Assembly (NCBI GenBank): GCA_028687525.1
Contig: JAQTZX010000001.1
Coordinates: forward strand, 1 to 27,230
DNA: 27,230 nucleotides
Direction: 5' to 3'
Origin: Candidatus Omnitrophota bacterium
Lineage (GTDB): Bacteria > Omnitrophota > Gorgyraeia > Gygaellales > Profunditerraquicolaceae
The notes beneath the pieces were generated by a model. It did no database searches and was not told where the DNA came from. It saw only the letters and a program-made list of their open reading frames with translations. Position 1 is the first letter of the stretch, and each line of letters starts with the position of its first letter. This document shows positions 1,195-4,100 of the stretch, piece by piece. The translations under genes and the position numbers were made by a program.

Positions 1195-4100
1195 CTGTTC
1201 ACTCCTGCTTTTATCTACGGTATTCCCCACCAACTCAGCGCCATCACCCGCTCCCGCATAAAGATTGATCCCCACATCTCCTTGGACGCTCTTGCCGGAA
1301 ATATAATTCCCATTGATTTTACCTACCAAAACACCATTCACATTAATACCAACATCTCCCTCTCCGGACAATTCCGTGAGTTTGTTTCCTTCGATATCAC
1401 TCTTACCAAGCGTGTAAATACCCTGCCCTCCAGAAATCTCATTTTTGGTAATCGTATTATCCTGTCCTTCATCTATTATAGAAAACCCGGTATACCCCGA
1501 GAATTCATTATTTACGATTCTATTATCCGTCGATTCCTCATCCATATAAATTCCGGCCGCATCCCCGCTTCCGGCCAGTTTATTGGCCTCAATGATGTTA
1601 TCCGAAGACCCGGTAAGAGAAATGCCGTTTTCGGATTCCGAAATAGAATTACCGGTAATATCGTTACCATCGGAATCGACCAGAGCAATAGCCGTTTTGA
1701 AATTCTCAACCCTGTTTTCTCCCACGTAGGTATCTGTTGTGTCTCTCAGCGTTATTCCCGTGCCTTCGCCGTTACCCTCCTGCCCGTTATGGCCGACGCC
1801 CGCGCTTTCAACACCAATCAAAGTTATCTGGAATGTGCCCAGATTATCCTGCCGGTTCTCGTTACCGTTATAGTGGATAGGCAAACATACATTGGCAATA
1901 TTGCCCAATCCTACAACGAATACCTCCGTAGGATCTTCCTCGGAACGCACAAAATTGTTAAACCAGACTATATCGTTCTTACCGATACGATCAGCCTGTT
2001 CTTCCTCGGAAAGACCGTACCAGTCAGTTATCAGAAACATATTCTTGACCCCGATATTACTATCCTTAATATCGGAATCGAGAAAATCCACCCCGTTCAA
2101 ACGATACAGATTTTCACCCAGGAAATTGCAATCGCGGCATTTAAAAGCGCCGTTGTTATAAACATACAAATCTTCATTAAAAGTAACCCCGGCGTGAGAT
2201 CCTTCTTCCGGAGTCCAAACGCCGAACGACAACTTGCTTCCGTTTTCTACAACCGCAGTAACGGGCTTGTCGAACTCCCGGTCAGTTACTGAAACGTCCT
2301 TTCCGCTCTTGGCATATACCAGAATGCAAGATCCCAGATCGTAAATGGCGCTATTGGCTCCGACATCTTCCTTTGACACCGTCCTCTCTTTCACTCCCCG
2401 CTCAAGCGTGTCATAGATTTCTTCGTCTTCCACCATTTCCGTGATTTTTTGTGAACAGCTGGCCGCCCGTGATTCATCATCTTCAATTGCAGTCTCCTCG
2501 CCGCTTCCGGCAACCAAACAATTAATGCCGCTTGCCAGATTTTCATAATGATTACCGCCGTTCAATGCACCTAATTCATGGCCTAAGCCGTATACGATAT
2601 CTCCATAGGTCGCATTCTGGGCGAAAGTATCGGTTATAACTATGTCGTGACTAGTAGGATCCACGGCCATGCCGAAATCCATCTCACCTGCTTCAAGATT
2701 AAGAACAGTCATATGAGCAGGGTCCACACCTAAAAACTTAGAATCAAAAGCCATTGCGTTATTGAAAGATTCGGCACTATCCGGCAGAACAGTATCTACT
2801 GAAGACAAACTGGCGCCCGGGACATAATTTTTGTAGCTGTTCCAGCTTATTTCATTACCACTCATGCCGGGATCTGAAATGGGGGAGAGGGAGCCTAAAG
2901 CCACGGGGCTTATAAATGCGCTCCCTCCGAGGATCGATAATGATGACGGATTGTAAGAAAAACTATCATACACAGTACAATCAAAAATATTCGCGGGAGA
3001 AGGCGGCGTGTATGTATATGTAAAAGAAGGCGCCGTCATACTTGTATAATCGGGAAGCCAATCGGATGTCGTCGGAATGCTTACGGCCGGGCTTGAAGAA
3101 ACACTTGCGGGCTCTGCAGAATAAGTATCCCCTGAATCCCAATAGCCGTCGCTATACATGGTACCGTCGCCGCCGTAATATGCATCTCCGCTGCTGGAGG
3201 AATCCCCGCTGCCAGCCGTAGAAGTATTGCTTGTCTCGGAAGCACTGCTGCCGGAATCACCGCTGGTAACCGCAGTACCCCAGCTTACCCCGCCCATAGA
3301 ACCGCCGTCTCCGGCTGACGCCGAAGCCATGTCACCCCAACTCTCTGAACCCCAGATATTCCTTAATATATCTTCGGATATTTCACTTCCCATGGACTTG
3401 TCCGCTTCTCCAACCAAAGCCTTTACAACCGTATCATCGGTTAAATCATATTTAGACTTAAACTCATCCCTGGACAAAGATTCGCCGTTATCCATGATCG
3501 TGCCGGTCTCGGCATCATAGGTTACATAATGGCCCGTACCGTCGGCGGTTTCCACATAAATAATCGCGTTATCCCGGAGGCTGTTGAGGTCAGAAACGCT
3601 CATTTCTCTTGCATAGGTTCCGGTTACCTGCTGTAACCCATACATTGAGGTTTCATATTTGCCGTTTGAGGTATTTAATCTTGAGTACTGTTTGAGGAGA
3701 GATACTGCTTCTTCGTTAGATATGCCTAAATAAGAGGATAAAGCTTGGGCGGCGCAATTAGCTTCTTCTGTTCCAGGCCCGCGAATAGGCTGACTAAAAT
3801 AATCGTTATGGATTCTATTAGGAGTTTGATTAGAATCGGAAAGCTTTGATGTTGCTTGGTTGCTTGTTACTTTTGAGCTTGATACGGTTATTGCTGCATT
3901 CGATGATACGGTTTGATCTTTGGAAGGACAACAGAAAGAGGGTTTTCTTTCCGTTGATGCCTTTGGAGGACCGGTTGGGGGCTGAGTCTTCCATAGATTC
4001 TCTATCTTATCATCGGTATTCTCTATTATAGAATAACTCTCTTTTATATTTGTATTCTCAATATCTGATAGTACGCCGACATTATCATTCTGGGTCTTAT

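Follow-up and report, generated by a model that had tools for sequence, protein, structure and literature searches.

A divergent C39 peptidase domain and a conserved double-glycine-like motif behind it suggest self-processing of a large Omnitrophota protein

Introduction

Does a peptidase domain that is followed, in its own chain, by what resembles its substrate signal cut that chain? The question is raised by a 27,230-nucleotide stretch of DNA from Candidatus Omnitrophota bacterium (assembly GCA_028687525.1, contig JAQTZX010000001.1, positions 1 to 27,230 of the forward strand), hereafter the window, which carries on its minus strand a gene for a large protein that appears to be exported (Table 1). 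A first-pass annotation, made from the letters of the sequence, had proposed a C39-like peptidase in this protein, followed directly by an internal double-glycine-type leader motif, and had suggested that the domain might cleave its own chain after S779 and release the C-terminal part as a passenger. Our analysis of sequences, relatives and predicted structures supports that reading.

Giant proteins of the Omnitrophota carry C39 domains near signal peptides, and autocatalytic cleavage has been suggested for them, with information on the cleavage point lacking (West-Roberts et al. 2023, bioRxiv 10.1101/2023.11.21.568195); a 2026 preprint lists a PF03412 architecture group (10.64898/2026.06.07.730766). 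The C39 domains of these giant proteins are thus already published, and what is new here is the predicted conserved cleavage site. In the literature that we searched, with incomplete coverage, we found no C39 domain described with a double-glycine motif in its own chain.

Results

Identity of the peptidase domain

We assign the domain to a divergent branch of C39 because of three kinds of match: that of a profile of its relatives, those of the relatives themselves to the Pfam family, and those of the predicted structures. The profile, built from an alignment of 11 sequences (A1), matched ComA in its peptidase domain (3k8u, 5xe8; E 1e-4), the catalytic His and Asp being aligned in register, and six of the 11 members matched Pfam Peptidase_C39 (PF03412) directly, the best at E 7e-18. 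An AlphaFold model of residues 618-803 had a predicted local distance difference test score (pLDDT) above 90 for residues ~639-777. Re-alignment with VIA superposed this model on the peptidase domain of PCAT1 (Z 9.4, root-mean-square deviation 2.9 over 105 residues, model residues 22-143), on LahT150 (Z 8.7) and on ComA (Z 8.1). The model of a relative that is 25% identical, built on 60 sequences, gave Z scores of 13.9, 13.8 and 13.6 to PCAT1, LahT150 and ComA, respectively. Plain Foldseek returned no match at E 0.001 or better, the disordered tails inflating the root-mean-square deviation, and a single-sequence search of the PDB sequences returned only spurious matches to designed repeat proteins. 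The C39 fold that the first-pass annotation had proposed was thus recovered through the relatives and the predicted structures.

The putative triad of that annotation, C643, H718 and D731, was found at exactly the codons it had given (Table 1). The structural alignment (model 22-143 against chain 17-141) gives an offset that pairs the Cys with C21 of PCAT1. The invariant residues of A1 are N642, C643, A644, H718, D731, N732 and G778; the last of these belongs to the motif behind the domain and not to the peptidase.

The double-glycine-like motif and its conservation

The motif begins about eight residues after the end of the peptidase domain and is internal to the same chain (residues 768-779), not the N-terminus of a separate precursor; its coordinates are those given at first pass. 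Compared with the consensus L(-12), E(-8), L(-7), hydrophobic (-4), G(-2) and G/A/S(-1), this copy reads I, I, L, I, G and S. The matches claimed earlier, I(-12), S(-11), L(-7), I(-4), G(-2) and S(-1), were all confirmed, as was the mismatch at -8, where Ile stands instead of Glu. We predict the scissile bond to be S779/E780, which lies between bases 3346 and 3345. A loose version of the pattern is expected 0.065 times per shuffled protein and, behind the domain, 0.002 times per 60 residues; since this pattern was defined after seeing the sequence, the match in this single copy is only suggestive. Against the NCBIfam leader families the motif segments had one sub-threshold match, in one relative only: the leader portion of a lantibiotic of the lacticin-481 type, at E 0.018 and 15 bits (cut-off 46). 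We did not count it as support.

We consider the conservation of the motif in the relatives, as read from their sequences, to be the decisive evidence for the observation. Searches of 60 related genomes and 1.84 billion representative proteins recovered a small family whose members are all large, from 871 to more than 5000 amino acids. The search of the 1.84 billion representatives, made with the single sequence as query, gave only 10 matches, one of which (P0011) was an unrelated repeat protein, and a word-indexed search gave a single relative. The segments behind the domain in the first relatives were VSEDILRNTWGA, LSDDDLQNTYGA, LPTSEIQGVYGG, LSFEETSKVLGG and LSEAELQLIWGA; relatives with full matches to the consensus include LSEAELQLIWGA and LSEEEMANIKGA, and distant copies were often nearer to the textbook consensus than the motif of the window itself. 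With a limit of E 1e-5, the A1 profile had matches in 91 of the 401 Omnitrophota genomes, many of the matches falling in frames of tens of thousands of codons and some at the heads of open frames of up to 82,151 amino acids. We collected 67 distinct copies, of which 61 covered the region of the Cys.

The first-pass annotation had proposed to look for the motif behind the C39 domains of homologous large proteins, and it is conserved there: G(-2) was present in 11 of 11 sequences of A1 and in 60 of 60 of a wider MAFFT alignment (A2; 60 copies, mean column identity 28%), in which the only invariant columns were the Cys, the His and G(-2). Over all 67 copies G(-2) was aligned in 57 and recognized by eye in five more. 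Position -4 was Val or Ile in 52 of 56 copies and position -12 was Val, Leu or Ile in 47 of 56, and position -1 was Ala, Ser, Gly, Asn or Asp across the copies (n=56), with Ala, Ser or Gly in the nearest relatives and Ser in this copy. The distance from the His to G(-2) was near-fixed, mostly 56-66 residues. A pattern in the style of the literature (-12, -4, G, G/A/S) was present between His+54 and His+66 in 33 of 62 copies, where the flanks would predict 0.95, and a strict pattern that includes -7 occurred at the same distance in 11 of 62, where 0.34 was expected; the copies are related and not independent, so that these ratios overstate the significance. The direction of the enrichment behind the domain is clear from the sequence counts.

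The domain and its motif are repeated in some proteins. Near the start of a 59,091-codon frame there are four tandem cassettes, each with its own motif (G264:C2:42659-47515, plus strand; L013, L037, L038). Since each of the tandem domains has a motif of its own, domain and motif appear, from these sequences, to travel as one unit. A fifth cassette was observed in the adjoining divergent frame of 2698 codons (G264:C2:38181-38639, minus strand). Separately, Trp is recurrent at +2 to +4 from the predicted cut (ESW, KW, RW, GWW, LSW; window 3337-3345, minus strand), being at +2 in 26 of 56 copies; it might be a determinant on the P' side or relevant to the new N-terminus.

Modelled placement of the motif

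Placement of the motif in the active-site groove, which the first-pass annotation had suggested modelling, was judged from the confidence values and the secondary structure of the models. In the model of the window protein the motif had a pLDDT of ~94; residues 770-773 formed a short helix and 777-778 were extended, and confidence fell below 50 from residue 782 onwards. The model of the 25%-identical relative gave the motif a pLDDT of 97, a helix from -10 to -5 and extended residues at -3/-2, with a pLDDT of 61 just past the predicted bond. In the complex of PCAT1 with CtA, the leader is helical from -10 to -4 on a hydrophobic groove and its GG enters the active site (PMC6959990); the modelled shape of the motif matches that of the CtA leader on PCAT1. 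The motif lies outside the region that could be superposed on solved C39 domains (model residues 22-143; relative, 6-132).

Prediction with residues 636-762 and 763-800 as two chains gave a score of 0.36, compared to 0.10 for the best control, and a confident interface of 643-644 and 716-719 against 773-783. The mark used for such predictions was reached by 51 of 78 solved complexes and two of 108 mismatched pairs; at scores of 0.60 or below it took in only five of the 78 solved complexes and all four of the mismatches that passed (of 180). The single-chain models thus place the motif with high confidence, and the two-chain prediction, with its contacts to 643-644 and 716-719, lends this weak support.

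Layout of the gene and its surroundings

The coordinates of the features are collected in Table 1. The only part of the protein recognized by Pfam and NCBIfam scans was a NosD-type parallel beta-helix at residues 1306-1467. Between the linker and the beta-helix lies a conserved domain (residues ~930-1300) with no match in Pfam, NCBIfam or the ESM Atlas; it contains a stretch GHELG...NH (residues ~930-1290, window ~1800-2900, minus strand). The Gly/Ser-rich linker would provide the new N-terminus of the passenger after cleavage.

Table 1. Features of the locus discussed in the text. Positions are those of the window.
Feature	Position	Strand	Basis or remark
Gene for large exported protein	73..5682	-	at least 1869 amino acids to TAG; frame continues open to window edge
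N-terminal hydrophobic segment, residues ~8-29, end TWA/A	5596..5661	-	sequence reading; related N-termini in relatives
Low-complexity spacer, Ser/Thr/Asn/Val-rich, residues ~80-600	3883..5445	-	sequence; no Pfam family
C39-type peptidase domain (clan CA, papain-fold), divergent, predicted, residues ~639-760	3403..3768	-	AlphaFold model, VIA, profile match; relatives match PF03412
C643, predicted nucleophile	3754..3756	-	invariant in A1 and A2; present in 61/61 copies covering the region
H718, predicted general base	3529..3531	-	invariant, 67/67 copies; aligned with ComA catalytic His
D731, predicted third triad residue	3490..3492	-	invariant in A1; at least 90% conserved in A2; aligned with ComA Asp
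Double-glycine-leader-like motif I768-S779 (ISEDILRNIWGS), then E780	3346..3381	-	sequence; conservation; model
Gly/Ser-rich flexible linker, begins ESWG	3073..3345	-	sequence; pLDDT <50 from residue 782 on
NosD-like parallel beta-helix in passenger, then tandem repeats to TAG	1282..1767	-	PF05048 E 3.6e-13; TIGR03804 beta-helix repeat
c-di-GMP-I-GGC riboswitch aptamer, 5' leader of C39 gene	5794..5908	-	Rfam RF03167, 68.5 bits against gathering score 59

The N-terminus of the protein consists of basic residues and then a hydrophobic stretch with the end TWA/A, an arrangement kept across the family that looks like a signal peptide or a signal anchor. Judging by this segment, the C39 domain is probably located outside the cytoplasm. 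Two sequence motifs are conserved in this part (window 5596-5682 and 5452-5482, minus strand; relatives L009, L011, L015 and L022-L036): the first is NWRE.IWLK, followed by the hydrophobic stretch and FSEVTWAA, and the second, about 45 residues after it, is F-[LI]-x-P-S-A-x-A. The heads of the giant proteins have a related anchor, with a hydrophobic stretch and then PEQ.SWAFNYNP. These motifs look like a family-specific export or anchoring signal.

At the other end of the gene, the 1869 codons end at an in-frame TAG (73-75), beyond which open, repeat-like sequence reaches the edge of the window (1-75, minus strand). Either the gene is longer, or this is a nonsense allele, or the stop is a sequencing error; the orthologue of the same genus lies within an open frame of 5039 amino acids. 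Antisense to the repeat region runs an open frame of 763 amino acids (window 1-2292, plus strand, 5' end open), which is probably an artefact of the repeat composition.

The gene is preceded by a cyclic di-GMP (c-di-GMP) riboswitch of the c-di-GMP-I-GGC class, with a terminator-like hairpin (5809-5778) overlapping its 3' end and a promoter-like site also found. Riboswitches of the same class were recovered upstream of the orthologues in the related genomes G001 and G010 (L077 1275-1387 and L078 1209-1340). A second riboswitch of class c-di-GMP-I in the window (9011-9146, plus strand) leads a gene cluster that starts at ~9171. The divergent gene at 6617-8551 (plus strand) encodes a TonB C-terminal domain and TolC-type outer-membrane efflux repeats (Pfam TonB_C and OEP), and its product is a possible candidate for an outer-membrane partner.

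Discussion

The proposed self-processing

The reading that we favour, and hold to be probably correct on the sequence and model evidence, is that the C39 domain binds its own trailing helix and cuts after S779 in cis, so that the passenger is parted from the anchor, spacer and peptidase. Once the chain has been exported behind its N-terminal signal or anchor, the C39 domain would fold, and the segment from -10 to -5 would form a short helix, with I(-12), L(-7) and I(-4) lying on the groove of the peptidase and G778-S779 entering its narrow active-site cleft. H718 and D731 would activate C643 for attack on the carbonyl of S779, and hydrolysis would part the N-terminal piece, made up of anchor, Ser/Thr-rich spacer, peptidase and leader, from a C-terminal passenger of Gly/Ser linker, unassigned domain, beta-helix and repeats. 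With the riboswitch controlling synthesis, production and release of the passenger would depend on c-di-GMP. A cut in cis is favoured because the spacing between the His and G(-2) is near-fixed.

Several observations weigh against self-processing. Position -8 of this copy lacks the Glu of the consensus, and the copies behind the enrichment counts share their ancestry. When the whole protein and residues 600-800 were compared directly with Pfam and NCBIfam, no C39 family came up, even at E 10. The oxyanion-hole Gln, which in PCAT1 is Q15, six residues ahead of the Cys (PMC6959990), is absent: G637 stands at -6 from C643, and no such Gln is conserved in A1 or in the phylum-wide copies. Where this canonical Gln is missing, the Asn directly before the Cys (N642) is invariant in A1. 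Sixteen of 56 relatives have Asn or Asp at position -1, residues that are ill-suited to the canonical narrow S1 pocket; this subgroup, at least, may bind the motif without cutting it, or may have an adapted pocket. Lastly, the two-chain test amounts to weak support.

Some of these points would suit a motif that acts as a pseudo-substrate latch, filling the groove and active site of its own domain, uncut or very slowly cut, with the peptidase released for other targets on a trigger, for instance tension on the passenger or an encounter with prey. The Asn/Asp residues at -1, poor for a double-glycine pocket, and the missing oxyanion-hole Gln could both be read in this way, as could the confident modelling of the motif on the domain, and West-Roberts et al. 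leave open the cleavage of other substrates by these domains (10.1101/2023.11.21.568195). However, the residues at -1 in this copy (Ser) and in its nearest relatives (Ala, Ser or Gly) are of the classical cleavable kind, A2 has an invariant Cys, His and G(-2), and an inhibitor would have no need for a cleavable-looking bond immediately before a disordered linker. We therefore regard such a latch as unlikely, and prefer cleavage.

Cleavage, in turn, might take place in trans only: a genuine site would then be processed by the C39 domain in an adjacent molecule, or in a different large protein, for instance once these have assembled at the surface. In its favour, the motif was docked as a chain of its own in the two-chain model, a C39 domain is found in at least one more large protein of G001, and some giant proteins have several cassettes. 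Against this, the distance from the His to G(-2) stays within about ten residues across copies whose mean identity is 28%, a constancy that a trans substrate does not need; the single-chain models place the motif at pLDDT 94-97; and neither a PF03412 match nor any other C39 domain was found elsewhere in the organism's own genome (71% complete). Cutting exclusively in trans seems to us unlikely too, slightly more so than the latch.

Least probable of the three, and in our judgement very improbable, is that the motif is simply the C-terminal helix and turn of the fold of this subfamily, with a coincidental likeness to a leader and a peptidase that acts on unrelated substrates: the single-copy match is only moderately unlikely under the loose pattern and the hidden Markov models of the leader families do not recognize the segment, bar the one sub-threshold match, but the segment lies beyond the part that superposes on solved C39 domains, shares -12, -7 or -8, -4, G(-2) and a small -1 with true leaders, takes the same helix-then-extended shape as CtA on PCAT1, and has a G(-2) as invariant as the nucleophile.

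Two further candidates were rejected. Export by a PCAT that reads the motif does not fit its place 768 residues into the chain, and the incomplete genome yielded neither an ABC nor a PF03412 gene for such a transporter. Sortase-like transpeptidation that anchors the passenger was set aside since the acyl-enzyme would hold the N-terminal piece and not the passenger.

Comparison with known systems

The closest comparison for self-processing is with the peptidase domains of the PCAT/AMS transporters (ComA, PCAT1, LahT150; MEROPS C39, PF03412), which share the fold and a Cys-His-Asp triad in register with the domain described here. The signal that they recognize looks like our motif, with hydrophobic residues at -12, -7 and -4, Gly at -2 and a small residue at -1, and our motif is modelled, like the leader in the PCAT1-CtA structure, as a short helix and an extended Gly-X. 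Unlike in PCATs, there is no fusion to an ABC transporter: Pfam found no ABC domain in the large-protein gene, the neighbours are RND, HlyD and TolC-type genes, and the peptidase domain lies inside a protein with an N-terminal signal or anchor. The signal here stands in the same chain directly behind the domain, whereas that of a PCAT substrate is at the N-terminus of a separate small precursor. In comparison with PCAT1, the oxyanion-hole Gln is absent and the Asn before the Cys is invariant, and this copy scores below the Pfam threshold.

The protein shares its phylum, domain family and N-terminal signal or anchor motif with the C39-bearing heads of the Omnitrophota giant proteins described by West-Roberts et al. 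(2023). It differs from the published heads in that its C39 domain is ~640 residues in (compared to ~150-400), behind a long low-complexity spacer. It is also smaller than the published giant proteins and has a beta-helix passenger, and a specific conserved cleavage site is proposed for it here.

A functional parallel can be drawn with LapG, a periplasmic cysteine protease of the transglutaminase-like family C93 that cuts the N-terminal retention module of the giant adhesin LapA under c-di-GMP control with LapD. Both arrangements would have an extracytoplasmic cysteine protease remove the N-terminal retaining part of a very large surface protein, with a link to c-di-GMP. LapG, in contrast, is a separate protein of another family, with a di-alanine site and post-translational control by LapD, whereas here the protease is in the chain of its own substrate and c-di-GMP would act on expression through the riboswitch. 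Self-cleaving cysteine protease domains are otherwise found in the MARTX and large clostridial toxins (the cysteine protease domain, C80), AvrPphB (C58) and AvrRpt2 (C70). In these toxins and effectors, as proposed here, an embedded cysteine protease cuts its own chain at a defined site and frees functional parts; their families and site motifs are different, and they have no bacteriocin-type leader signal. C80 is moreover from another clan, with inositol hexakisphosphate as its activator.

Significance

Whether the giant proteins of the Omnitrophota act as single chains or are processed is a live question, for which the cassette of C39 domain and motif predicts one bond and a new N-terminus, ESWG... 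in this protein. We tentatively extend the proposal to the phylum: the cassette may be a mobile, self-excising unit, found throughout the Omnitrophota, that sets exactly where large and giant surface proteins are cut from their membrane-anchored heads, at several sites if it occurs in tandem, and with a coupling, in this lineage, to riboswitch control of the whole gene by c-di-GMP. In the same extended and somewhat speculative form, the cassette could be a same-chain version of the pair of bacteriocin leader and PCAT peptidase, placed outside the cytoplasm. If self-processing holds true, this would be the first C39 double-glycine peptidase, within the literature searched, with its substrate signal in the same chain and no ABC transporter, and it would widen the known roles of the C39 protease family.

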